Positions 26,686-41,950 of a stretch of DNA of 64,000 nucleotides are shown in pieces. Both the position numbers and the translations under genes were made by a program. This DNA is from Deltaproteobacteria bacterium (GTDB lineage: Bacteria; Myxococcota_C; UBA6777). Within the stretch, counting starts at the first letter, position 1. Each line of letters starts with the position of its first letter. The stretch lies in the NCBI GenBank assembly GCA_006226375.1, contig SBHC01000026.1, forward strand, positions 30,903 through 94,902. The letters run 5' to 3'. Under the pieces are notes generated by a model. It worked only from the letters and a program-made list of their open reading frames with translations, did no database searches and was not told where the DNA came from.

Positions 26686-28341
26686 TTATTGTTCTGGAGC
26701 CGAAGTTGCATCCGTCTGTTGGCGAAACCGCGCCAAAACCCAAATCATAAGGACCAGAAGCAAAGCATAGCCTGCCATACGAGCTTCATCAAACCAAAGA
26801 GGGAGCTTTAAGTGGATAAGCTTGAGTGAATGGATGTCTCGGATCACCGAATTGCCCGCCAGCCCCATCAAATAAAACGAGCCAAGCAACAACGAGACAA
26901 CAAGGAAGGATTTGGTCGTCTCAGAAACAAGAGGGACCTTGCCCGGGTCCTGAGGTTTGGGGTGGTAACCTCCCAGAAACGCAAGCAACAACAACAACGG
27001 CAAGTTGGCGCACCAGATGTAGTATATATCCCAGCACATCGGAGAGATCGTAGGCAACGCAACCATCCCAAAGGCCAGAAACAAAGGAAAAGCACTCCAG
27101 GCCACAACAAACGCAAGCCAGGCCCACAAGGCGACGACACCCAAACGAAGCGGCCACAACCAACGACGGTCTTGGGGAGGCAAGGGATGATGACGAAGCC
27201 GGAACGAAGCTTTGCGATACTTGGCGAAACGACCCACCACAGCGTAGTTAACACCGGCCGTCGAACCTTTCGCAATCTTCGGCATATTCGCGAGGAATCG
27301 TTTGCTCTCCTTGAAGCCCACTCCCCACAGTGAAACAAGCACAACAAAGACCAAGCCAAGCCCAAAGGCCCCAGACCAGCGAAGAACCTTCGATGAAAAG
27401 CCTGGTCTGTTTCGGTGACGGAACCACCAAAGCCCCAAGGGACCCAAAACGAGAACAGGAACGAGCTTAACACCGACAGCAAGGGCCAACACGAAGCCAC
27501 CCAAACCAAGATGCACGGGATGAGCGTTCTCGTTCCTCAGATACCATGCCGTGTGAAAAAGACCGACGGACAAGAGTAACAAAATACCCACATCCAATTG
27601 ACCCAAACGCCAGGACCTTTGGAAGGAGTTAAAATACATGGTGGTGATCACCAGAACGCCAAACATTGGGAGCCCAGGATGAGCAGGTAGCCAGCGTCCA
27701 GGAAGATTTCGCTTGTCGTTGTCTTCAGCAACTGGAGACACCATCGCACGAAGGCTGACCGTTGCAGCCTCCACCTTGCCGGTCCACAGCCACTTTACCC
27801 AGAGCCAGGCGTAAAAGAAGAACGTGAACAGGAAGAGAACATTGAGACCCAACCAATAAGGAAGGAAGGCCCGCGTTTTCATAAACCCAAACGGCTTAAG
27901 CAAAGCAATCACAAAGGGGGAAGCGTTCACGCTCTGGTGAAGGCCTCGAAGGTCGTACACACCGGCCCCTTTGTAAGCCCGCTGAGCACCAAGAAAGTGG
28001 TTGTAGAGGAGGTCTCCCACCGTAAACTTCGTAGCGACAAACTCCACAAGGTTGGCAAACCCACTGAACGCGACCAGCAGCGTCAGGCCCCAAAGACCTG
28101 TCAACACCCAGCCCAACATGCCTTTCCGACGCTGCCACCACAGGCTCACAGCCAACAAGCCCATCCACCAAAGAGTCCAAAACTCGCGGTAACCGGCTTC
28201 GGGGTACCACCAGCGTGACTCTTTGAGATCAGGCCATTGCCCAACAGCCCAACCCAAACCAAACAGGGCGGATAGAGCAAGGACAAAAGAAAACCAAGTC
28301 CCCAACCAACGTGACAATGAATGCATACTAGGAGTGGTCAC
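26686..28341 (-). CDS. GT87/DUF2029-type (GT-C) polytopic membrane glycosyltransferase
   Basis: Many TM helices. NASPF, LGQLD, VGVKLVP and SPMCWDIY match GT87 motifs (YPP, GQ, K..P, SP..W.HY). Confidence 0.7.
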   Translation of the reverse strand: MTTPSMHSLSRWLGTWFSFVLALSALFGLGWAVGQWPDLKESRWWYPEAGYREFWTLWWMGLLAVSLWWQRRKGMLGWVLTGLWGLTLLVAFSGFANLVEFVATKFTVGDLLYNHFLGAQRAYKGAGVYDLRGLHQSVNASPFVIALLKPFGFMKTRAFLPYWLGLNVLFLFTFFFYAWLWVKWLWTGKVEAATVSLRAMVSPVAEDNDKRNLPGRWLPAHPGLPMFGVLVITTMYFNSFQRSWRLGQLDVGILLLLSVGLFHTAWYLRNENAHPVHLGLGGFVLALAVGVKLVPVLVLGPLGLWWFRHRNRPGFSSKVLRWSGAFGLGLVFVVLVSLWGVGFKESKRFLANMPKIAKGSTAGVNYAVVGRFAKYRKASFRLRHHPLPPQDRRWLWPLRLGVVALWAWLAFVVAWSAFPLFLAFGMVALPTISPMCWDIYYIWCANLPLLLLLAFLGGYHPKPQDPGKVPLVSETTKSFLVVSLLLGSFYLMGLAGNSVIRDIHSLKLIHLKLPLWFDEARMAGYALLLVLMIWVLARFRQQTDATSAPEQ

Positions 28342-29615
28342 TATTGGCTGGAGTTAGGGCTGTTGCGTCGCCATTCCTGTCGAGTCCAGGCCAACGCATG
28401 GGAAGTATCGCGCAATCGCTTCAAAAGAACCAACACGAGGTTGTGTTGAATCTTGAATCCAATGTCTGGAGATTGCCGCATCATCTTAAGGAACTCTTCG
28501 CCATTGATCACAAGGCATTCGGTCCGCTCTTGCGAGACAACCGTCGCAGAAACAGGCGCGCCATCGTACAAGCCCATTTCACCGACATAGTCCCCAACGC
28601 CCAATACAGCGAGCATCTCTTGACCACGGAAAATTCCCAACTCGCCGGATTGAACAATGTACAATTCCCGGGAAGGATCCCCTTCTCGCAGCACAACTTC
28701 ACCAGGCTCAAAGACCTTTTGTGAGGACGCGGACAAGACCTTCAAGGATTCAGGATACGACATATCCTGGAACAAGGGACTGTGCCGCAAGACATCAACG
28801 CTCGCGACAATCTCGGTGGTGCGGGAAGCTTCACGACCTTCAACAGACACCACAACCACGGTAATGTTGTCTTTTCCGCCGCGCTGGTTAGCGAGATCAA
28901 CAGCTTGCTGTGGTACCTTGGAGAGATCGTGCTGCGATAACATCGTAGCCAGCTCCCCTTTCGCAAGGTAACCGTGAAAGCCATCGCTGCAAACGAGGAA
29001 GGCATCGTGGGGAAGCAGGTCCACAAAGAACAGATCCACCTGCAGACGGTCGGCCATGCCCACAGCGCGGGTGATAACATTCTTGTAGCGCGAAGTCGCC
29101 GCCTCTTCTTGCGAGATCAGCCCCATTTTGAGCTGCTCAGCAATCAAGGAGTGATCTTCGGTGAGTTGGTACGTCGTCCCATCTCTGTAAAGATAACACC
29201 GGCTGTCTCCAACATGCACAATACAAGCGACGTCACCGAGGACAACCATCGCACAAAGCGTGGAGCCCATTCGGAAGTCATTGCCGCGCTGTCGAGATTG
29301 GGAAAAGATCTGGTAGGTGATAGCCTGAACCGCCTGATCCAGGTAATCTTTGGCCTGTCTACGGTGCTCATCAGAGAGAGGTTGCCCAGGTGCAATCGCT
29401 TGTCGGCCGAACAAGTCGGGGCGACTGCGAAGGTGACTTTGCATCCCTTCCACCACCATACGGCTTGCGACATCACCGGCGGAATACCCACCAACGCCGT
29501 CTGCAACGACATACAGTCCAACTTCAGGATCAACGAGGACAGCGTCCTCATTGTGGTTTCTTCGGCGGCCAACATCGGTGGCTTGCCACCCAAACAATTT
29601 CAGTCGTGGGGCCAT
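28341..29615 (-). CDS. PP2C (PPM) Ser/Thr phosphatase with C-terminal cyclic-nucleotide-binding domain
   Basis: TDVGRRRNHNED, VADGVGG, HVGDSRCY, CSDG and GGKDNIT, followed by REGDP..LYIVQSG and VGEMGL...SATV. Confidence 0.93.
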   Translation of the reverse strand: MAPRLKLFGWQATDVGRRRNHNEDAVLVDPEVGLYVVADGVGGYSAGDVASRMVVEGMQSHLRSRPDLFGRQAIAPGQPLSDEHRRQAKDYLDQAVQAITYQIFSQSRQRGNDFRMGSTLCAMVVLGDVACIVHVGDSRCYLYRDGTTYQLTEDHSLIAEQLKMGLISQEEAATSRYKNVITRAVGMADRLQVDLFFVDLLPHDAFLVCSDGFHGYLAKGELATMLSQHDLSKVPQQAVDLANQRGGKDNITVVVVSVEGREASRTTEIVASVDVLRHSPLFQDMSYPESLKVLSASSQKVFEPGEVVLREGDPSRELYIVQSGELGIFRGQEMLAVLGVGDYVGEMGLYDGAPVSATVVSQERTECLVINGEEFLKMMRQSPDIGFKIQHNLVLVLLKRLRDTSHALAWTRQEWRRNSPNSSQ

Positions 29616-29784: not shown

Positions 29785-30828
29785 TCATTTCCTGGGATGC
29801 TCTCCTCCCCCGCCAAATCCGGCGTGTTTTGCAAGTTCGCGAAGCCAGCTTCGAGGAGACACACCCATCCAACGCTTAAAGGAGCGGGTAAACGAACTAT
29901 GTTCATGGTAACCCAGCTTGGCAGCGACTTCAGAGATGGAAAAAAGCCTCTGTCCCAGCAAATGAAGCGCTTCTTGCTTTCGATACGATTCAACCAACTC
30001 CTTGAGAGATAGCTTCTCCTTGCGCAACCGCCGCTGGAGAGTTCGGAGAGGAATCCCCAATCGATCGGAGACGGCCTGCCCCACGCTGAGTTCTGAATCA
30101 AAAACCCCAGACATCACGTTCCAAACCGCATAGGCAATCGGAGCCGAGGAAAACCGCTGAAACATCATCTCTTCCGCGGCTTTTTGAAGAGACAGGTGCA
30201 ACGCGGGATCGGTGTTTGGAGCTGGAGACTGCCAAGCCTCTTTCGACAGCCTCACCCCCGTGTACATGGGGTGAGGAAGAACTGGAGTTCCCACAATGTC
30301 ATCCAAGGTGGGATCGCGTTTTTGGAGAGGCCGCAAAAACACCATGGGAAACTCAAAGTCCTCTCCCAACATCTCTCTTGCTCTCTTGATGAACATTCCC
30401 AAAAGCCAACGGTCCACATGGTCATGAAGTGGAAAGTACGGGCGATTGTAGATCCGAACCTCAATGTCATCCTCAACCTCAGCGTACTCCAAGCGAGTCG
30501 TTGAGCTGACAAGAGGGATGTATTTTTGCAATTGGAGGAGGCCATCCTCCACGGTATCGGCCGTAAAAACAAGATGATCCACAAGACCAAAGCTACCAAA
30601 GGGAACAGCGAGGCCCGCACGGACAAACAGATGTGGCGTCTTCGACAGCTGTTGGGCGTGCTCCCACAAGGACATGATGGAGTTGATACTGGCCATTACT
30701 CCCCAATATTCAGTGAGGACACCCTTCTGCGAATAAAAATGATCGGAGATACGCTCTCGGTCCAGGCCGACTTCCGCAAACGAGTCAAAAATCGCCTGAA
30801 AACTTTGTCGTGGTAAAAAGTGTCTCAT
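29785..30828 (-). CDS. AraC-family transcriptional regulator (OruR/Arabinose_bd_2 type)
   Basis: FGLVDHL..TADTV N-domain. RTLQRRL and ISEVAAKLGYHEHSSFTRSFKRWMGVSP HTH. Alternative start at 30873. Confidence 0.93.
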   Translation of the reverse strand: MRHFLPRQSFQAIFDSFAEVGLDRERISDHFYSQKGVLTEYWGVMASINSIMSLWEHAQQLSKTPHLFVRAGLAVPFGSFGLVDHLVFTADTVEDGLLQLQKYIPLVSSTTRLEYAEVEDDIEVRIYNRPYFPLHDHVDRWLLGMFIKRAREMLGEDFEFPMVFLRPLQKRDPTLDDIVGTPVLPHPMYTGVRLSKEAWQSPAPNTDPALHLSLQKAAEEMMFQRFSSAPIAYAVWNVMSGVFDSELSVGQAVSDRLGIPLRTLQRRLRKEKLSLKELVESYRKQEALHLLGQRLFSISEVAAKLGYHEHSSFTRSFKRWMGVSPRSWLRELAKHAGFGGGGEHPRK

Positions 30829-30951
30829 GACAAAGCCAACTCCATGTTTCAATAACAAGACTTTCGCCGACATACACCAACATTCCAAGACGACATCGAC
30901 GGGTTCGGATCACCCAATTTGTGGGCTTGTTTTTTACTTCGTTTGGGGGGG

Positions 30952-31016
30952 TGACGTCAAATGACAAAAAGTAGGTCTCGGAAGACAAGACTCTCCAACT
31001 CACCTTTCCTTATGCT
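30952..31016 (+). promoter_or_regulatory. Candidate AraC-type operator (direct repeats 21 bp apart) and -10 box
   Basis: tgacgtcaaatGACAA (30952-67) and aggtctcggaaGACAA (30973-88), then TATGCT at 31011-16. The second repeat abuts the -35 position. Confidence 0.45.
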
Positions 31017-31102
31017 CAGGAAAGCGATGCACACTTCGATGTACCCGACAATTCTTGCCTGGTGCTTATACCCAACGTTCATCCAAGACAACGGAGAGAA
31101 GA

Positions 31103-34100
31103 ATGAAACGAAGCCTTCTACTGCTTTGTGTGGGGTTGCTATTTGTTGCCCCAACCCTGAGCCATGCCAGCCAGCTTCAAGGCGACTACGTCCTTGATGC
31201 AGCCGCGACACGAAAGCACGCCCAAACGCTCATCAACAAACTTCCCGCCCAACAGCGACCGCTCGCCAGAAAGTACCTTCAAACGACACAAGGAAACCAT
31301 CAACTGTGGTTGCGTTTCCACCCCAACGGCAATCGCCTCTCGTTCATATCCCAGCATCAGGTTCGCGGTCGTCTGATTCGAAGCGGTGTGTTGCAAGGTT
31401 CATGGAGCCAAACCACCACCGGCTACCGTTTGACGTTTTCGACGACCCAGACCCTTTGTACGAAGGCTCGTGGCAATAAGCAGCTCAAGTGTCGGAACCT
31501 CTCCAAACGCGGCCAACAGCCGTTCTTTTTTATCAAACATGTCTCTAGCAATGACCCAACGTTACGAGCGTTTCGCGCCTACACCTCACAAATGAATGCC
31601 AATCGCAACCGGCGAAGCCGAGTTCGTAGGATGAGCGCAGGCAAAACCAGACCCATTCAAATCCGTGGTCTGGCGAACAAGCGAAAAAACATCTTTACCA
31701 AAGGACTGGCGCGAGAGGTCCTGGCGAAGCTTGCCAGAACACCGGGCAAACTACTCAACAGCAGCCGGGAAGCGGAGCAAGCGAAACTGAACCTTTTGCG
31801 GGCCGCTGCCAAACCACGAAGCAAAACGGTCAAAAAAAACACTCAAATGGCAGCTGCCTTTGGCGTTGGACCCTATGAAACTCCAAGCTTCGATGAGCTC
31901 AACAGGCGGATGAAGATCGAGCACTTGTTGAAGATCATCAGCGGTCGAGCAGGAGGAGAGGTTTGCTTTGATCAATGGTTCCTGCATTACAAGCTGCTCG
32001 TTTGTGGGGAGAGGCAGGTCACGGGGAAGGCCAGAGTCTGGGTCAAAAAGGCCGAGGCACACCTCTTTTTCTTTCAGCACCACGTCAAGTTGTACGATGT
32101 CCCTCCCAATGGCAAAGAGATCTTGGGATGGCTCCAACATCGGTTGATGGAATTCAACAACACTCTCCAAGGCGTCGAAAACGAACTCAACAAGGTTCGC
32201 GAAGAGGCGATGAGGTTCTACAAATCCAAAGAAGCGGATGTTCTTCGAGAGATCTCAACCTACATCAACAGCATCCTCGCAACTCCAACCTTTCAGTTCA
32301 TTCTAGCCGAAGCGCTCAACAAAGTAGGTCAGCCGCTCGCAGAGAAATACGCCAGAATCATCGCAGACAAGTTGATCAAGAACCTCTCCAAAACGCTGAG
32401 CAAAGCAGCAGGTCGGGCGGTGGTCGAGGCTGCCAAAAAGACCATCCTAAACTCCGACAAGGTAATCAAAGCCTCCAAAATCGACTCTCTCGTCTCTTTG
32501 ACGGTTGGGGTTGGCATTCAACTGGCCGCCCCCCCCATCAATGTCTTTATCAAATGCGCCCCCTACTCGGGTGATGCAAAGTTCTGTTGCATCCAACGGG
32601 CGGTCGCCGAAGAACTCACCATGCTGGTCTACAACATCGCGACAGCGATCATCGGAGTGGTGGTGGATGCAGCCATCATCACGCCAGTGTGCACTTCGTT
32701 AGGAGCGAGCATCGCAGGGGCAATCACTGGCTCAACGGCTGGCTTTGGTGCAGGAGTGGCAGCGGTGATTGCTCCCGTTGCCACGAAGATTCTCAGCGTC
32801 TCCTTTAACACCTTGATGACGGGTTTGTTTATCGGAGGAAGTTATGCCTGGGATGCAATCGCCAACGCTGCAACGGTAAAAACACACATCAACAAGCTCA
32901 CTGGCATCATCATGGTCGAACTCAACAAGTCTTTTAAGAAGGCAGGAATGGATCTTCGCAAGCTCCCTTGCATTGCTTGCGAACTTGCCGTCAAACCTGG
33001 AGAACAATGCAAAGGCCTCACCAGCATCAAGCCTTCGACACCCACCCAGGTGGCCACCAACGCACCAGGTTATGTGGGCTGTTTCAAAGACGAGGGCAAG
33101 CGTGATCTGCCAGCAACGGTCCATGGCAGCAAGTTTAATCCCGCAACTTGTACCCAGGCTTGCGCCAAACATGGCTACTCCTACGCAGGACTCCAATTCT
33201 ATGGACGCTGTTACTGTGGCAATACGTTTGGCCAACGCGGAGCTGCCCCCGAAGATCAATGCAGCTACAAATGCGAAAGCGACAAAGGACACCTCTGCGG
33301 AGGGAGCTGGAGAAACAGTGTCTATCTAACCGCCCCAGTCCTGGGCTGCTACGCTGACAAGGCCAACCGCGACCTTGGTCGTCAGGTGCTATCCAGAGGC
33401 GCCTTGCCCAACACCTGTGTACAACGTTGCCGCAGCATGGGCTATCGTTACGCTGGCTTGCAACATACAGGAAAGTGCTTTTGCGGAAACAGCTATGGCA
33501 AACATGGCAAGCGCCCCCTCGCCGAGTGCAACCTCCGCTGCACTGCAAAAATCCACCTACGCTGTGGAGGACTATGGAGAAGCCTGATCTTCGATACAAG
33601 ACAAAACCGTCTCCCGACTCCAGGACTTCTAAGAATCGGTGAAGACGCCGCACGACACGGAGACCAAGGAAGCAGTCTGTACGCCCTCCAAAGGAAACAC
33701 ACCGAGTCGTTTTATGTTGGTCCCGATGGCTATCTTCACTATGTCTTCTCACATCGTGGACGATGGATGCTCGACAAGAACACCTTCCGTCGTGGGGGCA
33801 AAGCTACTGGAGCTGTCTCTGCGGTCTTTGCACCTCACCGAAATCATGCTGAAGTGTTTTATGTAGGTCCCGATCGCCACCTACATTACTACTTTATCCA
33901 TCGAGGCCGCTGGATGCTCGACAAAAACACCTTCCGTCGAGGAGGCCCGATCAGCGGCTCAGTCAGTGCAGTGTACGCCCCCCACCGCAAACACTCGGAG
34001 GTCTTTGTGCGTGGACCCAGAGGTTACCTCCAACATTACTACCTTGTCCCCAACAAAGGATGGAGGCTCGAAACCAAGGCCTTTCGTCGCGGAGGTCAAG

Positions 34101-34675
34101 TCGAGGGACCGATCAGCGCGGTCTATGCAACCCATCGCAGACATGCAGAAGTGTTCTATCGTGGCCCCAACAACCTCTTGCACTACTTCTTCCTCCACGG
34201 TGGACGTTGGCATCTCGACAAAACCACGTTCCGAAGATTCCCTGTCCATGGAGACCTCGCAGCACTTTACAACCCACTCCACCGCCATAGCGAAGTGTTC
34301 TACCGAGGCAGGGATGGATACCTCAACCGCTTCTTCTTCCACAGAGGTTGGCACCATGATAACCAAAGTTGGCGAAGCGCAGGCCGAGTGACCGGAGAAA
34401 TCTCCGTTGTCTTCGACCCCAGTCGAAAGAACCCCTCAGGCTTTTTCCGCGGTGAAGACGGTTATCTCCGGTACTTCTTCTATGAAGGACGTGAAAGACG
34501 CTGGAAAGTAGATCGTATGTCCTTCCGCAAAGGAGGAAAGGTCGCAGGTTCAATTTCGGCCTCGTACTCATCCAAGCGCAGACATACAGAGGTCTTTTTT
34601 CGGGGCACAGACGGTAGCTACAGATACTTCCATGTTGGACCCAGAGGCTGGACGATGACAAAGCTTCGTAGGTAA
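31103..34675 (+). CDS. Secreted multidomain protein: helical/hydrophobic core + 2 WSC domains + 7-repeat lectin-like beta-propeller
   Basis: Signal MKRSLLLLCVGLLFVAPTLSHA-S. WSC motifs YVGCFKD...C...C...YAGLQ....CYCGN...C...C......CGG twice (~33068-33595). Seven HxEVFYxGxxxxL repeats (~33670-34672). Confidence 0.88.
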   Translation: MKRSLLLLCVGLLFVAPTLSHASQLQGDYVLDAAATRKHAQTLINKLPAQQRPLARKYLQTTQGNHQLWLRFHPNGNRLSFISQHQVRGRLIRSGVLQGSWSQTTTGYRLTFSTTQTLCTKARGNKQLKCRNLSKRGQQPFFFIKHVSSNDPTLRAFRAYTSQMNANRNRRSRVRRMSAGKTRPIQIRGLANKRKNIFTKGLAREVLAKLARTPGKLLNSSREAEQAKLNLLRAAAKPRSKTVKKNTQMAAAFGVGPYETPSFDELNRRMKIEHLLKIISGRAGGEVCFDQWFLHYKLLVCGERQVTGKARVWVKKAEAHLFFFQHHVKLYDVPPNGKEILGWLQHRLMEFNNTLQGVENELNKVREEAMRFYKSKEADVLREISTYINSILATPTFQFILAEALNKVGQPLAEKYARIIADKLIKNLSKTLSKAAGRAVVEAAKKTILNSDKVIKASKIDSLVSLTVGVGIQLAAPPINVFIKCAPYSGDAKFCCIQRAVAEELTMLVYNIATAIIGVVVDAAIITPVCTSLGASIAGAITGSTAGFGAGVAAVIAPVATKILSVSFNTLMTGLFIGGSYAWDAIANAATVKTHINKLTGIIMVELNKSFKKAGMDLRKLPCIACELAVKPGEQCKGLTSIKPSTPTQVATNAPGYVGCFKDEGKRDLPATVHGSKFNPATCTQACAKHGYSYAGLQFYGRCYCGNTFGQRGAAPEDQCSYKCESDKGHLCGGSWRNSVYLTAPVLGCYADKANRDLGRQVLSRGALPNTCVQRCRSMGYRYAGLQHTGKCFCGNSYGKHGKRPLAECNLRCTAKIHLRCGGLWRSLIFDTRQNRLPTPGLLRIGEDAARHGDQGSSLYALQRKHTESFYVGPDGYLHYVFSHRGRWMLDKNTFRRGGKATGAVSAVFAPHRNHAEVFYVGPDRHLHYYFIHRGRWMLDKNTFRRGGPISGSVSAVYAPHRKHSEVFVRGPRGYLQHYYLVPNKGWRLETKAFRRGGQVEGPISAVYATHRRHAEVFYRGPNNLLHYFFLHGGRWHLDKTTFRRFPVHGDLAALYNPLHRHSEVFYRGRDGYLNRFFFHRGWHHDNQSWRSAGRVTGEISVVFDPSRKNPSGFFRGEDGYLRYFFYEGRERRWKVDRMSFRKGGKVAGSISASYSSKRRHTEVFFRGTDGSYRYFHVGPRGWTMTKLRR

Positions 34676-34883: not shown

Positions 34884-37880
34884 TTATGCGTTGGCATCGT
34901 TGAGATAGTCAGTCCCTGTGTACGAAGAATAATTCGATATAGCACCCGGAGCCAGGTCATTTTCGACAAGCCAGTTGGCGAGACCATTGATGGACCGACC
35001 TATGTTAAAGCCATCCATGAAGATTTCATTCGGGTCTCCCAGCTGAAAGACACCTTCGTCGTTGGGGTCCACGCCGTGAGCGTGGGTAACAATCTTCTTC
35101 ACATCACCAGAGGACAAGGAGCCAAGGTAGTCATAAAACTCTGGACCCGACATCCCAAACCTTGAGGCCAACTGGGCCAGGACAGGTCCAGCGCTTCGGC
35201 CTTTGTTGTCGTGATTGGAGAGTTGCTTGGCGATGTCTGGATCGATACCGGCATCGATCAAGAATTGTTCTGTGGGGCCTTCGTACTTGTTGGACTCCGA
35301 AACATTCTTGTAGTGGTTGAGTCCCAGACCAGTCACAAGCAAGCCAGCCGCAACAAGCTGTCCACCAGGAATGCTCCCAACAACTCCTGCCGCCGACAAA
35401 GCGCTCCAGGCTCCTACGGCAGCGCCAGCTGCGGACACACCATGGATGGAAGCGTTCAGGTAATTGCCATCTTTGAGGTCACTGATGGCTTGTGCCCCTT
35501 CAAAGATCCCCGTCACACCGTTCACAAAGACCCCAACCGCTGGCAGCTTGCCCACATGTTTGAGGTTCGCGAGTCCTCCCACATCATCAATCTTGGTGCC
35601 CAACCAAGCAGCCTTCGATGCGGCGCTCAGGCGACCGGCATGATCTGCAATTTTCAGCGCAGCAGAAGCACCGTCGGCCCCTAGGTCAAGAACGTCAACC
35701 AGCAATTGGGAGCGCTCCAGGGCGTCACCTGTTCTCCAATCCTCGCCAAGATTGTCCAACGTCTGACCCGTTTTGAACAAGACATTGGCGCTGTCAAAAG
35801 CAAGAGAGTGGACCTTGAATCGGTTTTTCAGAGCGTCACGAAATGCCGGTGAGATGTTGGCAAAGGTCTTACCGTCGTTCAACACATCCAGCAGACGTTC
35901 GGCAAATTGTTCGACTTTGCCCGGCTCGCCACTTCGGAACAAATCATCAAAGGTGTCCCGAAGTTCAGCAGTCTCGGGACTTTCGGGGTCAAGAACCTTC
36001 AGATTTTCAAGCTGATTAAGCAAACCATCATGAGCAGAAGTCGTCTGTTGCCCTGTCCCCTGGGTGCCGCCGGCGAGAAGGGTCGAGCTTGCGCTCTCCG
36101 TCAAAGCTACGGACAATTCGCCACGAAAAGCATCAGGGTCTTTGGTACGTTCGGCAACATCGTTGATGTGGTCAAGAGCGGTAGATTGTCCCTGGCCGCT
36201 TCGCTCCAGCATTGCACCAATGACCGCGCTTCCAGACGAAGAGTTCGCCAGATTGGGAATCTCTTGAGCGACGGCCGCTCCAACAATTTGCAGTCGGTCA
36301 GCATCAGAACCATAGAAGTTGTACTCACCATGTTCTGCAATCGCGCTGTCTTGGTCAAACACAGGACCCAGTCCTGGAACGGTAGAGGCCAACAACGCAG
36401 CCTTCTTTTCCAGGTCATCAAAGTCTTTCTGGTTCCGCCCTCTCTCCGCATCGATGGCTTGTTGAAGTTTGTCTTCTGGGAGTAACTCTCCCTGTGTACC
36501 GACCAGATGAGCGAGCTGTTCGTTGTGTTTGTCTACCTTTTCTTGTGCGGCCTGAAAGTCTTCCGTAAGTTCACCCACGCTGTGGGTAACAGCCTTGGAA
36601 ACGTCGTGGGCTCCGTCTGTTTTGCCAACGTTGTACAATTCGTTGGCGAGCTGTACGGCAAACGTGGTGCCTTTGCCTTCAAGAATCGAGGCTTCAATCC
36701 CATCGTCCAGCTTTTTCAGGTTTCCATCGGGCCAGTTCGCTGCGATTCCCTTGGCCAAGATAGCAGTGTTGTCGGGTCCCAGCGCTTCACCGACTTCAGA
36801 GAGTGTGCCGATGACGCGTTTGGCTTCATCAGTGTCTTTGGCTTCATTGAGAGATGCACCAAGCTTCTCGATGGAAGATTCGGACTGTTCCAGAACTTTT
36901 TGTTGGTAAACGGGGTCAAGTCCCTCTTGCCCAATAGTGTCTTGGAGGGCTTGAGCCCCTTGCTCTGGACCTTTAGCGACAGCCGAGCGAATCCGCTGCG
37001 CGTCGAGTCGTACCATCTCACCTTGTGAAATGTGGGAGGGAGATCCCAAGAGGGTAGCTTGCGTGTCTCGTGGCAATCGAGCAATTTGTTCGGAGACTTC
37101 GCGCGGAGACCCACTTGCATCGAGAGTCGTTGCCGCAGGATATGGAAGGGGTTTGTCATCATCGATGGCTTCCTGGTTGGCTTCTTGCTGAGAGACCACA
37201 AGGTTTTGTGCCCTCTCCTCCACAACCTGTTCGGCTTCCCTAATTTGCTGTTGGTATACAGAAGAATCACCAGGAGCATGTTGAAGTACAGCTTCTGCAT
37301 GTCTTAAGTCAGTCTGCGCCTCTTCCAATGCAGCATGATGTTCTTCGACAGTCGCAGGCTCCTTGTTCTCCGAAACGCTCACATCCTCACCCGGTGTTGT
37401 CTGTACACCAGACCGTGGGCGAGCAGAGTTTGTCACCGATTGCGCGGAGCGGTTCAAGATTTCCGGCGTCACTCCAACATCGCCCAAAGGTCGAAAGGAA
37501 GACAAAGTTGAGAGCCCTGGTTTCTGCGTCGGTGAATCGAAAGATGGGGGAGTCGCAGTTCCTTTGCCCGTTGTTGCTGCGGAAACCGTCTTTGGAGGAG
37601 TGCTTACAACGGCCTGATGGAGCTTTCGGGACAACATCAAAGATTGGGTCGAACGATGGGACGGCAGCTCTTGTTTTTCAGCCCGCTGAGCTAGCAGATC
37701 TTTCTTCGCCTGGATGGCTTTTTGGCTAGCGATGGAATGGGCATCTTCCTTTGCAGTAAGCCCCGGCGACTTCTGCAAGGAACTCTTTTTCTTGGACTTC
37801 TTCGACGATGTGTCTTGAGCCGAAGAAAGAGAACTCGGACTTTGAATTCTGCGGGTACTTCCGAGCTTTGAAACACTCAT
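34884..37880 (-). CDS. Large (~998 aa) helical protein with disordered Ser/Lys-rich N-terminus and C-terminal Gly/Ala-rich hydrophobic segments; effector-like
   Basis: Long ORF from ATG 37880 with GAGG upstream. No Sec signal. Hydrophobic stretch VGVFVNGVTG...AAGLLVTGLGL. Function not recognised. Confidence 0.75.
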   Translation of the reverse strand: MSVSKLGSTRRIQSPSSLSSAQDTSSKKSKKKSSLQKSPGLTAKEDAHSIASQKAIQAKKDLLAQRAEKQELPSHRSTQSLMLSRKLHQAVVSTPPKTVSAATTGKGTATPPSFDSPTQKPGLSTLSSFRPLGDVGVTPEILNRSAQSVTNSARPRSGVQTTPGEDVSVSENKEPATVEEHHAALEEAQTDLRHAEAVLQHAPGDSSVYQQQIREAEQVVEERAQNLVVSQQEANQEAIDDDKPLPYPAATTLDASGSPREVSEQIARLPRDTQATLLGSPSHISQGEMVRLDAQRIRSAVAKGPEQGAQALQDTIGQEGLDPVYQQKVLEQSESSIEKLGASLNEAKDTDEAKRVIGTLSEVGEALGPDNTAILAKGIAANWPDGNLKKLDDGIEASILEGKGTTFAVQLANELYNVGKTDGAHDVSKAVTHSVGELTEDFQAAQEKVDKHNEQLAHLVGTQGELLPEDKLQQAIDAERGRNQKDFDDLEKKAALLASTVPGLGPVFDQDSAIAEHGEYNFYGSDADRLQIVGAAVAQEIPNLANSSSGSAVIGAMLERSGQGQSTALDHINDVAERTKDPDAFRGELSVALTESASSTLLAGGTQGTGQQTTSAHDGLLNQLENLKVLDPESPETAELRDTFDDLFRSGEPGKVEQFAERLLDVLNDGKTFANISPAFRDALKNRFKVHSLAFDSANVLFKTGQTLDNLGEDWRTGDALERSQLLVDVLDLGADGASAALKIADHAGRLSAASKAAWLGTKIDDVGGLANLKHVGKLPAVGVFVNGVTGIFEGAQAISDLKDGNYLNASIHGVSAAGAAVGAWSALSAAGVVGSIPGGQLVAAGLLVTGLGLNHYKNVSESNKYEGPTEQFLIDAGIDPDIAKQLSNHDNKGRSAGPVLAQLASRFGMSGPEFYDYLGSLSSGDVKKIVTHAHGVDPNDEGVFQLGDPNEIFMDGFNIGRSINGLANWLVENDLAPGAISNYSSYTGTDYLNDANA

Positions 37881-38109
37881 ATTGGCCTCTAGCATCCATC
37901 GCCACAATGACAACATCGAAGAACTGTTTTCTTCCGAGAAAAAGGTATGTTAACAGCCAATCCCCACAGGGTCAAGGGCGGTATAGTGTTATAGGGTGAG
38001 GTTGATAGCAGTTGGTTTGTTAGGAGTCCGTAGGTTGCACAGATTGAGCAGGAGGGAGTCCGTCTAGCCTCTTCATTTTCAGCTAGAAACCTCCATCATT
38101 TTAACTTGT

Positions 38110-39834
38110 TCATTGGGTATTCCGGGATGGAGGCAACTTCGGTTTTTCCTTTCGGCCAAAGACAAAAACAGGCTTCCAGGCAACCAGAGGTTTGTAACAC
38201 CTGGCCAGCTGGAACCGAACCGAACGCTGAACTGGGAACCCCCAAACGACAATGTTATCTACTAACTTGCTTAGACCACAAAGTTGAAGAGTTTGAGGCC
38301 TCCCAATCAAAGATGGAATCCAAAATTTTTGGGAAGGAGGAACGCCCATTTTGGAGCGAATGTTCTGGAGAAATGCCTTGCGAAACGAGACAGGAAAGTA
38401 ATCCAACTCAGCTTCGTAGTTTGCGAGATTGATGGCCCCTTTGTCCATACAGGCATAACTGATAGCATGAAGATGAGTGTGAACGCGATAGCTTCGATCC
38501 ACTTGAACTTTTCCAGTGGGAAGTCCTTTGGCCTTAACACCCGAGCGGTAATGAAGCGGAAGATAGACACCTTTGGGTTTTACATTGCGGGTGACCCGAA
38601 CATAGTGTTCCAGGTCCTGACTTAGTTTGGAACAAAGGTAGGTAAAATGAGCAAAGTTCCCCACCAAAACAACAACGAGAACACCTCGAAACACCTGCCC
38701 CATCCAATTGGCGGGCAAACGCAAACAAGCCAGAAGACACAACCAACCCAAAAGTGAAAATCGGCTGTTCAACCACAACGCAGAACCCAAAGAACGCGGA
38801 GCCACCAAATAGCCCAAGAAAAGTCCCAATGCGAGAAGAACAATAGGCCACCGAAGTGATATGGCTCCTTCTTCAGGAGAAGCTTCCTTGGATTCTGTAC
38901 ACCCCTTCGACCGTCGCGACAATACAAGGGTAAGGATGCAGCCCACAATGATTAAAGCACCGACACCGTACGAAAAAAAGGTTTGGTAGGGGTGAAGAGA
39001 AACAAGGGGATAGAACAGGATCAATCTGACACGTTCAAGGAGCGCACCCCAAGTAAACCAACCCGCCGAAGTCGAAGAAGATAGCTCTGAATGTGGCAAG
39101 TAAAAGCCAAGCCAGCCAACAGCAGGAAGAAGCCACAACCACGTTCGCAGAAGCAGCTTTCGCTCTCGAAAGAAGCAGAGAACGGACAAACCTGCAAGAG
39201 CGCCCAACAACAAAACAAACGGCAAGAGATGGGTGAAGTAAAGACAACCCAAACCTAGATGTAGCCACAGATAATGAGTCCACCTCATCAGGTTTCGATG
39301 CTTCCACCAAAATCCAAGCAGACCAAAAAACATGGCCACGCCAAAAGAGAAATTCCAAAACCCCATCTGAAAATAGAAATGGTACACAAAGAAGAAGCTC
39401 AAAAGAACTGAGTCATACGGGAAACGGTCAGGCTGAACGGCTCGAAAGAAGTACGCCATGCATCCCAAAAAGAAGAGAACATAGAAGCTGAGAAAGATCT
39501 TCTCAGCAGCGAAAGGAGACACCACTTTCATCAACAAAGCCAAGACAGCTTGCGAAAACCAGTTTGGTAGAGCCTGCCATTGGATTTGAAAGTACTGGGA
39601 GTACACAAAATTGGGGTTCCAATACTCCGCTAGAATGTGAGCATTGTATAGATGGCTGGGTCCGTCTTGTGTTGGGAAATAGGGGAACAACCAAATGGGC
39701 AAAAGGGCGAGTATCACAAGAACAACAGCCGCCCAACCCCAAGCCTTAACTCTATGTTGTGACAATGGAACTCTCTCTCTACCACAGGAACGTATCTTCC
39801 ACTTAATTTTCAAGGCGTAACGGTAGCATTCCAC
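38110..39834 (-). CDS. Polytopic membrane protein, putative GT-C glycosyltransferase
   Basis: TQDGPSHLYNA acidic first loop, MGFWNF, YFTHL and about 10 TM segments, followed by a soluble C-terminal domain. Start uncertain. Confidence 0.65.
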   Translation of the reverse strand: MECYRYALKIKWKIRSCGRERVPLSQHRVKAWGWAAVVLVILALLPIWLFPYFPTQDGPSHLYNAHILAEYWNPNFVYSQYFQIQWQALPNWFSQAVLALLMKVVSPFAAEKIFLSFYVLFFLGCMAYFFRAVQPDRFPYDSVLLSFFFVYHFYFQMGFWNFSFGVAMFFGLLGFWWKHRNLMRWTHYLWLHLGLGCLYFTHLLPFVLLLGALAGLSVLCFFRERKLLLRTWLWLLPAVGWLGFYLPHSELSSSTSAGWFTWGALLERVRLILFYPLVSLHPYQTFFSYGVGALIIVGCILTLVLSRRSKGCTESKEASPEEGAISLRWPIVLLALGLFLGYLVAPRSLGSALWLNSRFSLLGWLCLLACLRLPANWMGQVFRGVLVVVLVGNFAHFTYLCSKLSQDLEHYVRVTRNVKPKGVYLPLHYRSGVKAKGLPTGKVQVDRSYRVHTHLHAISYACMDKGAINLANYEAELDYFPVSFRKAFLQNIRSKMGVPPSQKFWIPSLIGRPQTLQLCGLSKLVDNIVVWGFPVQRSVRFQLARCYKPLVAWKPVFVFGRKEKPKLPPSRNTQ

Positions 39835-39913
39835 CCCAACGCCGTCAAGATTGAGAGAAGTCCCCCAACAAGGCCGTCCTATCGCCAGATTGGCAGTTCA
39901 AAGGGAGCGAGAG

Positions 39914-41848
39914 TTAACGTCTTTGGGGAGAACGTCGTGTCGAGGGCGCCTGAAGTTTGGGAAGGGGAAGATTGTAAGGATACTTAAATCTCTTTCTCCA
40001 ATACATATATTGCCGATAGAAATGGACCTTGAGGCGAGCGTCAAAGTGAGTCTTGCGGTTGTAAACAAAGACAGTCCTGACATCTCCAGAGGTAAGATTG
40101 CAACGAAAGGTTGCCGAAGGTGGCCCAAAGAAACGACGTACTTTTTGCGCTGATACATTCCTTGAGTTCACTGCAACACGCTTGATCGCTTGCGCAGCGC
40201 TCAAGCCCTTTTGCTTCCAATGATTCAATTGACCTTGAATGGCCTTAACGAGCTTTGGGTTGTCTTGCGCTCGGAGGTACCGGCGAAACTCATCGTGAAT
40301 CTCCATGTACCCAGGAATGATAAAGTTAAAGAAGGGTGTTCCCAGCTTGGAAGTCCCCTGCCAATAGTAGGATACGTTGTTGTTCCAATGGTAGAAGTTC
40401 AACGTTTTGGGGTTGATTTGATAGACCCGCAACGCATCACGCGTCATCATTTGAATAGGACGGGCGGTCCAATACTCGGCAAGACCGTAAGCGAGGTTGT
40501 ATTTTTCTTTGTTCCGCATCAAACAATCTGCCAACGATTGAGCATCACCGGCCTTGGGCGACATCGCGAGCATCTCGTTCCAAGACACCTTCGCTTGCTT
40601 GAGTTGGGGCAAAGCGAGAAGAAAGACCACGATACAGACCCCAGAAACCACCGGAATAGCCCAAGGAACCCAACGAGGATGTAGAAGTGCCCTCTTGGTT
40701 TCCAACCGATAAGCAACATCAAACAGAAAAGCCAGGCAGAGATAAAAAGGAATGTAGGTGTAATACCGGCTGATGTTCCCTTTGGAAAGAAGCAAGTTAA
40801 ACGCGAGAATACACAGCGTAGCCCCAACAGCAAGTCCAAGCATGTAACCATGCGACCAATACACCAAAGGCTTGGGTTCGTCCGAGGTAAGGCTACGCAG
40901 CCATTGCACCATTCGAACAAACAGATAAGCAAACAACATCACTTGAACGAGCAGGAATAGGACAAGCAGGAAGCTACCTCCCAAGCTCGTGACGACCAAG
41001 TTCGCAAAGTTACGAAATGTGACGCTAAGATCCTTGACACCTTTGGGAGTGTAAGCCTGCCAAAGGTGGAACTGAGGCAAGGTGCTTTTGTACAGCACAA
41101 GGTACCCGAAAGCTGATGCTCCAAGCCCTGCAAGCGTTGCAGCGATCATCCTCTTCGAGTGCGAAGCTTTGAACCACCAGGACAATGCGGTGAGAACCAT
41201 CCATGTACCAAGAACGGGAGCGACAACGAAGGCTGCAAATTTAGCAGTACCTGTTAAACCGACACAAAGAATCGCAACCACCCAAAGGTAGTCATACCAT
41301 CGATGTTTCTGAACCAACAAGAACAATCGGGCGATAAGAAAATTTGCCAGAGAAAGATAAAGAAAGCGCCGTAGGTTGTTCGCGTTCGTGAAGATCACGT
41401 AGGTCGTACAAAGCAAATAATAGCTCCAACACAACAGCACCGTTGCACCCATAGCTATGGCTTGGGCAATCCAGCGCTGTGGATTCAGGACCACTCGCAG
41501 AACGTACCGCGTGGACGCATAGAGAAAAAGACCATTCACCCATGCGATCAAAAAACTTGTGAGAGGTATATTTTCTCGTGAGAGAAAGAAGAGTAGATAG
41601 TCAGAAACGACCACAAGTTCAAACCCACGCCCAGGAGGCTGGACCCAGTTTTGAAAAGGAAATCCGTGGTGAAACCAATCCTTGTAAAGGATCAAATACT
41701 CCAGGCCATCTCCATCAAGAGAACCATTCGCAAAAAAGAAAGGGAGCGCAGCCGCTGCCAAGGCCAGAACCAACAGTGCCTCACTCCCCAACCAACGCGA
41801 CCAGGGCGAAGAAGAAGTGGAGTTGTTGGGTTGTTCCTGAAGAGCCAT
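39914..41848 (-). CDS. Polytopic membrane protein with periplasmic C-domain, putative GT-C/glycan-modifying enzyme
   Basis: LDGDGLEY loop after TM1, about 11 TM helices, SRYY and GLAEYWTARP. Confidence 0.65.
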   Translation of the reverse strand: MALQEQPNNSTSSSPWSRWLGSEALLVLALAAAALPFFFANGSLDGDGLEYLILYKDWFHHGFPFQNWVQPPGRGFELVVVSDYLLFFLSRENIPLTSFLIAWVNGLFLYASTRYVLRVVLNPQRWIAQAIAMGATVLLCWSYYLLCTTYVIFTNANNLRRFLYLSLANFLIARLFLLVQKHRWYDYLWVVAILCVGLTGTAKFAAFVVAPVLGTWMVLTALSWWFKASHSKRMIAATLAGLGASAFGYLVLYKSTLPQFHLWQAYTPKGVKDLSVTFRNFANLVVTSLGGSFLLVLFLLVQVMLFAYLFVRMVQWLRSLTSDEPKPLVYWSHGYMLGLAVGATLCILAFNLLLSKGNISRYYTYIPFYLCLAFLFDVAYRLETKRALLHPRWVPWAIPVVSGVCIVVFLLALPQLKQAKVSWNEMLAMSPKAGDAQSLADCLMRNKEKYNLAYGLAEYWTARPIQMMTRDALRVYQINPKTLNFYHWNNNVSYYWQGTSKLGTPFFNFIIPGYMEIHDEFRRYLRAQDNPKLVKAIQGQLNHWKQKGLSAAQAIKRVAVNSRNVSAQKVRRFFGPPSATFRCNLTSGDVRTVFVYNRKTHFDARLKVHFYRQYMYWRKRFKYPYNLPLPKLQAPSTRRSPQRR

Positions 41849-41950
41849 ACCTTGTCCTGTTCGGAGAAGCCGTTTTGGGGAGAAGTGAATGGCTCAAAAG
41901 TACCAGATGCTCCCGTGCTTGTCGAGATTGCCAGAGAGCGTTTCAACAGA

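Follow-up and report, generated by a model that had tools for sequence, protein, structure and literature searches.

The secreted protein and its domains

The window, that is, the whole stretch of DNA analysed (64,000 nucleotides of contig SBHC01000026.1 from a Deltaproteobacteria bacterium, genome G000), contains a gene encoding a large secreted protein (31103..34675, plus strand, stop codon included) and, divergent from it, a gene of the AraC/XylS family of regulators (29785..30888, minus strand). What is new here is that alignments show the hydrophobic segment in the middle of the secreted protein to be a module conserved within a very rare family.

The coding sequence was defined from the open reading frame (ORF), its translation and a public entry. 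The ORF is open at 31055..34675 (+) and encodes 1206 amino acids if counted from TTG 31055 (P0001). The start codon is likely to be ATG 31103, giving 1190 amino acids, since this ATG is directly preceded by GGAGAG and the form in the public collection (P0004, 1190 amino acids) begins there. Residue numbers refer to the 1206-residue reading unless stated otherwise; 16 is to be subtracted for the 1190-residue form.

The first-pass annotation of this DNA, made from the letters alone, listed a Sec signal, a basic N-terminal domain, a hydrophobic Gly/Ala-rich region flanked by cysteine pairs, two complete WSC domains and seven repeats of about 48 residues, and this anatomy holds. The protein starts with a Sec-type signal peptide, MKRSLLLLCVGLLFVAPTLSHA, ending in SHA/SQ (31103..31168, +; residues 17-38, judged by eye). 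The mature chain is very basic as a whole (isoelectric point, pI, 10.2) and contains 27 cysteines. Its N-terminal domain (31169..31819, +; pI 12.0) is an orphan: it is shared only with the orthologue P0005, and Pfam and NCBIfam scans gave no match to it. It is followed by a predicted disulfide-bearing beta-meander (C304, C317) and then by long helices, together called the stalk (31820..32449, +), as derived from alignment A1 and AlphaFold2 model 1; alignment A1 places the same region in the short forms of the family. The conserved family module occupies residues 466-652 (32450..33010, +) and was delimited by alignments, profile searches and AlphaFold2. It consists of a helix, a C501...C512 loop, a long helical hairpin, a further helix and a C639...C652 segment. 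Within it lies an Ala/Gly-rich, almost charge-free core defined by composition (residues 521-599; 32615..32851, +), which starts at residue 521 with LTMLVYNIATAII... and has just two charged residues. The core includes 39 consecutive residues without Asp, Glu, Lys or Arg and a G555-x3-G559-x3-G563-x3-G567 series, and the flanking cysteines are C501, C511 and C512 before it and C639, C642 and C652 after it.

The WSC domains (33071..33325 and 33338..33592, both +) are matched by Pfam profile PF01822 in two stretches (E 3e-29, 101.5 bits against a cut-off of 27.8). Each of them (residues 673-757 and 762-846) has eight cysteines, and eight conserved cysteines typify the WSC domain.

The C-terminal part is a seven-repeat beta-propeller of the PLL/BP39L-like kind (33656..34672, +), identified by repeat anchors, NCBIfam and a comparison with another genome of the phylum, G003. 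The seven anchors are at residues 882, 931, 980, 1030, 1078, 1127 and 1177, with spacings of 48-50 residues. The repeats, about 50 residues each, carry one Trp per blade, as in the PLL, PHL and BP39L lectins of Photorhabdus and Burkholderia, which likewise have seven repeats with the W-motif. The window propeller differs from these lectins in being one domain of a larger protein and in scoring far under the curated cut-offs: 46.5 bits against 200 for the NCBIfam family beta_propeller_lectin (NF052348, E 2.5e-12) and 31.3 bits against 400 for BP39L (NF052349, E 1e-07). A phmmer search of the PDB sequences gave no solved chain of the PLL type at E <= 1, two chance rows aside. The propeller is 47% identical over 335 residues to the N-terminal propeller of a 1583-residue protein of G003. 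Members of the PLL family bind L-fucose and O-methylated glycans between the blades, as described in an excerpt of PMC6943638.

A 170-residue ORF elsewhere in the same genome (L002 1216-1728, +, contig C17) has only two to three propeller blades, with 59% identity to the final blades of the window protein. This ORF, which adjoins a gene for a Cys-rich repeat protein, could be either a minimal lectin or a remnant.

The conserved module and its rarity

Residues 17-660 were compared by HMMER with 1.84 billion representative sequences (the counts include the query itself). There were 14 proteins at E <= 0.001, five at E <= 1e-10 and two at E <= 1e-30. Twelve of the 13 non-self matches are confined to residues ~340-640. 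Only the orthologue P0005 (980 amino acids) matches along the entire N-terminal 640 residues; it is 43% identical overall and differs from the window protein by exactly the two missing WSC domains. The relatives are named merely 'hypothetical protein' and come from metagenome-assembled genomes (MAGs) of Myxococcales or Deltaproteobacteria bacterium and from ocean and JGI metagenomes. A scan of genome contigs with P0004 and a scan of metagenome contigs with alignment A5 gave no relative, and a scan with alignment A6 gave three loci in two MAG records, which are G003 and G005 again.

Alignment A1 has 15 rows (the 13 non-self matches, the window segment and a paralogue from its own genome). Positions C501, K509, C512, D538, G563, N585, C639 and C652 are invariant in all 15. 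The broader alignment A4 has 25 rows; omitted from it were P0007 and P0010 (whose locus copies were kept), two partial copies of G004, two duplicated copies of G003, and P0018 and P0019 (represented by L018). All 25 rows have C501 and C512, and D538, P544 and G565 occur in at least 90%. Two local disulfides, one on each side of the hairpin, are the more likely arrangement, because three divergent members retain the first cysteine pair (C501/C512) and lack the second. Saposin-like cross-stapling (C1-C4, C2-C3) was considered and dropped for the same three members, which have neither C3 nor C4.

No known domain was found in the module. Pfam at E <= 0.1 recognised nothing in the window protein apart from WSC, and at E <= 10 no Pfam family was found in more than one of 14 module segments. 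The NCBIfam scan gave no match to the module, searches of the PDB sequences were empty, and literature searches, confined to open-access papers and a limited set of terms, gave no description of such an architecture. By these comparisons the family is very rare, and its conserved domain, the module, is undescribed in domain libraries, structure libraries and the source annotation. The architecture, which the first-pass annotation did not recognise from any described protein, is likewise undescribed, its sole full-length relative being one cluster labelled 'hypothetical protein'.

Distribution and exchange of partner domains

The phylum is represented in the searched set by six species genomes (one family, three genera, sizes 5-11 Mb). 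The module occurs in five of them: in three places in G000, ten in G003, two each in G005 and G004, and one in G002. The ten places of G003 include two duplicated pairs, and the number of distinct module genes there is about eight. A weak match (E 2.6e-4) turned up in just one of 55 genomes from other families, and it involves a part of the A1 profile outside the module. Clear matches are thus seen, among the genomes searched, only inside the window's own six-genome phylum.

In the short forms (~390-460 amino acids) the module is preceded by a signal peptide and a helical region very rich in Lys and Arg, which includes the Cys-bearing beta-meander. Of the ten relatives scanned, seven have extracellular domains that are lectin-like or rich in cysteine; the remaining three have no Pfam domain. 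The partners of the module in the long forms, all from Pfam, are Tachylectin (E 3.4e-41), four DM9 stretches (E 2.2e-38) together with Tectonin (E 2.2e-17), WSC (E 6.2e-15), Ephrin_rec_like (E 8.5e-13) and, in three proteins, trefoil-like domains of the Fascin, FRG1 and DUF7910 families, one of them with DUF7910 below the cut-off. P0007 and P0008 have the propeller of the window type, placed N-terminal of the module. Since the relatives retain the module while the partner domains change, the module is, on the domain assignments, the constant part of these proteins and the glycan-binding domains are the variable part.

Two more module genes lie in the window's genome. One encodes a short-form paralogue of 433 amino acids with a signal, a Lys/Arg-rich region and the module (L003 1348-2649, -, contig C43); it adjoins a gene for a reverse transcriptase of the group II intron type with an HNH end, as judged by eye (L003 1-1161, +). 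The other (L029 7000-8886, +, contig C29) is divergent and encodes 628 amino acids, with DUF7910 on the N-terminal side and no second cysteine pair. In G003, a gene upstream of a 1136-residue member encodes a 645-residue protein with eight stretches of STIG1 (L017 11831-13768, -, contig C117; E 5.2e-41). STIG1 is a plant-type Cys-rich domain and thus another eukaryote-like extracellular domain in this lineage.

Predicted structure and hydrophobicity of the module

AlphaFold2 model 1 (residues 256-661, 15 sequences, mean predicted local distance difference test, pLDDT, 60) has a helix, a three-stranded meander and long helices. The strands are at model positions 47-81 and the helices, in the region labelled a coiled coil by the first-pass annotation, at 98-246, with low confidence. 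Model 2 (residues 396-661, 25 sequences) has a mean pLDDT of 73 and a predicted template modelling score of 0.59; over the module (model residues 91-260) the pLDDT is 73-91. Its helices are at model positions 82-105, 111-165, 170-208 and 211-234. The module is thus predicted to be a long helical hairpin flanked by two shorter helices and having a charge-free tip. The turn is placed at the conserved GxG, because the helix borders of model 2 fall there.

In 25 members, the longest run without Asp, Glu, Lys or Arg has a median length of 42 residues (range 16-53). Such runs contain 42-64% Ala, Gly, Ser and Thr and have a mean Kyte-Doolittle value of 0.9-2.0. Insertion energies were computed for the best 19-mer as simple, approximate sums of a translocon hydrophobicity scale, without position terms. 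On this scale a constitutive anchor would have a 19-residue window near or below zero; the best window of the module has +3.1 kcal/mol. For seven of 13 relatives the best module window lies below +3 (+1.3 to +2.9), and for the other six above +3. The protein's own signal peptide has +2.5, and the transmembrane helices of two polytopic proteins encoded at 38110..41848 have -3.3 to +0.9. Since the sums are weak compared with those of the neighbouring transmembrane helices, the segment, although apolar on all faces, appears too weakly hydrophobic to resemble a stop-transfer anchor. By analogy, this composition is that of the buried hairpins in helical pore formers. It speaks, short of proof, against a plain anchor and also against an exposed coiled coil. 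By every test run (Pfam, NCBIfam, Foldseek and the hydrophobicity sums) the central region is neither an ordinary anchor nor a known enzyme, the alternatives that the first-pass annotation had named.

The regulator and the intergenic block

The divergent AraC regulator reported by the first-pass annotation is seen in the listed ORF, in the Pfam matches and in an orthologue from G003. It matches HTH_18 (62.5 bits against a cut-off of 33.6, E 4.8e-17), HTH_AraC (31.2 against 26.6) and Arabinose_bd (46.5 against 27.6, E 6.1e-12), and in NCBIfam a QhpR-like family below the cut-off (E 1.9e-37). The true start of the gene is probably near 30828-30831, since the orthologue begins at residues aligned with M21. 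Among the other five genomes of the phylum this orthologue is found only in G003, which belongs to another genus (55% identity, E 7.8e-130), and two of the five have any match to the regulator at E <= 1e-10.

In G003 the regulator gene (L043 5983-7014, -, contig C2) is again divergent from a gene for a secreted protein (L043 7350-12101, +), namely the 1583-residue protein mentioned above. The latter contains the N-terminal seven-blade propeller, about 900 residues without a Pfam match, a Ricin_B domain and a fascin/DUF7910-like end; the module is absent from it. This gene shares with the window gene the regulator and the intergenic block described below, and has a different central part.

An alignment of the two intergenic regions, which are otherwise diverged, has one common stretch, an operator-like block of 27 nucleotides, GGGGGGGTG[A/G]CGTCAAATGACAAAAA (30944..30970, no strand assigned). 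It contains TGACGTCA and the spacing TGAC-N6-TGAC. The 20-mer of the block occurs once in G000, once in G003 and in none of the other four genomes of the phylum, with no matches in the controls. The block ends 134 nucleotides before the ATG of the lectin-bearing gene in the window and 124 nucleotides before it in G003, and its distance to the regulator gene varies more between the two genomes than this distance does. As far as two regions can show, the block is the phylogenetic footprint of a dedicated operator. The regulator would bind it and activate the gene of the secreted protein, which may thus be inducible.

Loci of the family

We compared the genes around 14 family loci by an all-against-all BLASTP search. 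None was shared beyond protein kinases and STAND regulators, and no recurrent secretion-system or immunity-like gene was observed at the 14 loci. The neighbours that were scanned are regulators, kinases, a helicase, or proteins without a Pfam match. Four family loci adjoin a dedicated regulator: AraC in the window, regulators with LuxR, AAA_16 and TPR domains at two genes of G003, and a BTAD/NB-ARC/TPR regulator at the third copy of the window's genome (L029; 1184 amino acids, after the module gene and on the opposite strand). The genome also encodes three secretins, which could in principle provide passage through the outer membrane. A search of sequencing runs listed no RNA run and a single DNA run, which may be the source of the window.

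Proposed function

We suggest that the secreted protein is an inducible, glycan-targeted, membrane-inserting toxin of a new alpha-helical family, and give this reading a probability of roughly 0.45. On this model the AraC-type regulator would act at the conserved operator and turn the gene on upon a signal. The protein would pass the inner membrane by the Sec route, the hairpin being too weakly hydrophobic for stop-transfer, and would then be released from the cell, either in vesicles or through a secretin-dependent route. Its positive charge, together with the seven-bladed propeller and both WSC domains, would hold it on a glycan-rich, anionic target surface. Finally, the tip of the hairpin would insert into the target membrane and make it leaky, probably after oligomerisation.

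A close analogy in design is provided by lectin-pore-former chimeras. Passages of PMC3110756 describe lectin domains, including tachylectin-2-like and DM9 domains, fused to pore formers of the aerolysin type; natterins with DM9, tachylectin-2-like domains with aerolysin, LSL and aerolysin itself combine, in that account, a constant membrane-attacking module with interchangeable lectins. The snail protein PmPV2 is named among such chimeras of the MACPF kind. DM9, tachylectin and beta-trefoil are the lectin folds that these chimeras, as covered there, have in common with the module family. The exchange of partners around the module, with at least six other lectin-type folds, resembles the pattern of lectin-targeted pore formers. 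However, the aerolysin and MACPF chimeras are beta-barrel formers of known fold, whereas the module is all-helical as predicted, bacterial and restricted to one small phylum.

Helical pore formers offer the other comparison. According to parts of PMC9558359, the pore domains of colicins are built round a hydrophobic helical hairpin, and receptors include surface polysaccharide, namely lipopolysaccharide for colicin N and the polysaccharide CPA for pyocin S5. Pore-forming colicins and pyocin S5, as far as they are treated in that source, share with the window protein an uncharged central helical hairpin (predicted at 111-165 and 170-208 of model 2), a separate receptor-binding part and a modular design. 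The colicins differ in that their pore domain is a ten-helix globule and not an extended hairpin such as that predicted here; the window protein is Sec-exported, contains disulfides and has no adjacent immunity gene. The colicin profile PF01024 gave no match at E <= 0.1 with the protein or at E <= 10 with the 14 module segments. ClyA, Hbl-Nhe, AhlB-SmhB and MakA resemble the module in their long bundles of helices, whose apolar head or hairpin becomes the membrane-spanning part, but the module has no fold or Pfam match to them and is not a member of this group. Three-domain Cry toxins combine a helical membrane-inserting domain with lectin-like beta domains for receptor binding. The window protein has no Endotoxin_N or other Cry domain in Pfam and differs from them in order, size and fold. 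Since no profile match, fold match or immunity gene was found, the module family, as judged by these comparisons, belongs to none of the pore-former families considered.

A number of results weigh against a membrane-inserting toxin. Fold searches with Foldseek gave nothing significant: the best match of model 1, to designed helical proteins, has E 0.063, and the best matches of model 2 have E 1.3 in the PDB and E 1.2 in a viral library. The top rows for model 2 (E 1.3-1.7, insignificant) are chemoreceptor hairpins, which serve as oligomerisation scaffolds. ClyA, SmhB, AhlB and MakA appear only at E ~1 or worse amid unrelated helical proteins; the rows for 6mrt, 7a0g, 6h2f, 6grj and 7p3r with model 1 have E 0.85-1.3 and TM-scores <= 0.13, and 7p3r with model 2 has E 6.2. 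The ESM Atlas gave only leads below the 0.9 level (Colicin 0.84, Gly-zipper 0.84), which we do not count as support. The models are of monomers, with moderate confidence and at most 25 sequences, and they do not demonstrate an amphipathic sheath that would cover the hairpin; the translocon sums, as said, are of a simple kind. If the target were bacteria, the lack of an immunity-like or conserved neighbour would be out of the ordinary for a pore former. Passage through the outer membrane is something we infer from the signal peptide, the 27 cysteines of the mature chain and the three secretin genes. Lastly, no module was found in G001, a genome of the window's own genus (93% complete, 930 contigs). 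The lectin-guided toxin proposed by the first-pass annotation is therefore supported in part. The architecture, the conservation of the module and the swapping of lectins are in its favour; the relationship to alpha-pore-forming toxins that was part of it is not borne out, as Foldseek gave E >= 0.06 for model 1 and E >= 1.2 for model 2 and Pfam gave no match.

If the hairpin were a two-pass or re-entrant anchor, the protein would be an envelope-anchored glycan-binding protein, such as an adhesin or a sensor of cell wall or glycans. We consider this unlikely. Kyte-Doolittle means are indeed above 1.5 over residues 503-568 of the 1190-residue form, the arms of the predicted hairpin each have about 20 uncharged residues, arrays of lectin domains are typical of adhesins, and the neighbours in the window are envelope-glycan genes (GT2, acyltransferase, epimerase, polytopic membrane proteins). 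However, the translocon sums of the module and its relatives (+1.3 or higher) lie above those of true transmembrane helices, and polar or charged residues are conserved within the segment (D538, P544, N585). Moreover, with a cleaved signal peptide both ends of the hairpin would be periplasmic in a secretin-bearing diderm and external glycans would be out of reach, and the short forms have no binding domain at all. The latter also bear on a scaffold role, as they hold nothing to multimerise. In that case the protein would be a non-lytic secreted agglutinin or matrix protein, whose Ala-rich hairpin raises lectin valency by oligomerisation. The small residues permit tight helix packing, the chemoreceptor rows mentioned above are hairpins of four-helix bundles, and oligomerisation commonly gives lectins avidity, as an excerpt on the PLL family states (PMC6943638). 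On the other hand, a median of 42 successive charge-free residues is unlike exposed coiled coils, and the pairing of a Lys/Arg-rich region with an apolar hairpin characterises membrane-active proteins, so that a scaffold also seems improbable to us.

More doubtful again is a use of a different kind, as a carrier of a lipid or other hydrophobic ligand, a device for vesicle targeting or fusion, or a surface-active coat protein. It would agree with the lack of any known domain or fold in the module, and the Gly/Ala-rich apolar segment, long helices and receptor-binding head recall the class I fusion proteins of viruses, a resemblance in make-up that no search supported as homology. But nothing speaks for such a use positively, and the loci examined showed no conserved partners of the transporter or lipid-enzyme kind.

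Returning to the membrane-inserting toxin, a wider and still more tentative proposal is that the window protein founds a new superfamily of alpha-helical toxins that insert into membranes, and is its best-decorated member. These toxins would have evolved in one small uncultured phylum, been retargeted via lectin folds of eukaryotic type and come under dedicated transcriptional control, for use against glycan-coated prey or hosts, as a helical bacterial counterpart of the natterin and aerolysin lectin-toxins. If the module does insert into membranes, the short list of helical folds that form pores or perturb membranes would gain a new member. The family would then also be a case of natural combinatorial retargeting by lectins, which would help to explain how toxins gain specificity, and would offer a first functional foothold in an uncultured phylum of bacteria with large genomes. 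The unique operator and its AraC partner would make a compact regulated unit. If the module is an anchor or a scaffold instead, it would still be an undescribed domain organising many eukaryote-like lectins in bacteria.

Neighbouring genes in the window

The gene next to that of the secreted protein (34884-37916, -) encodes P0003, a protein of 1010 amino acids with a long low-complexity N-terminus, no signal peptide and no Pfam or NCBIfam match. It has a charge-free Gly/Ala-rich stretch of 53 residues (817-869) and is a second candidate membrane-active orphan adjoining the window gene. By the two comparisons made, P0003 is not related to the module (BLASTP E >= 3; -1.5 bits in a profile search with all filters off), and the phylum's other five genomes yielded no homologue of it.

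Further on, the region 38110-44764 (-) encodes two polytopic membrane proteins without a Pfam match (574 and 644 amino acids) and a 937-residue exported protein, in which a 5'-nucleotidase C-terminal domain is followed by a long C-terminal part without assignment. On the other side, directly downstream of the AraC gene and on the same strand, lies a gene for a PP2C phosphatase fused to a cyclic-nucleotide-binding domain (28341-29615, -).

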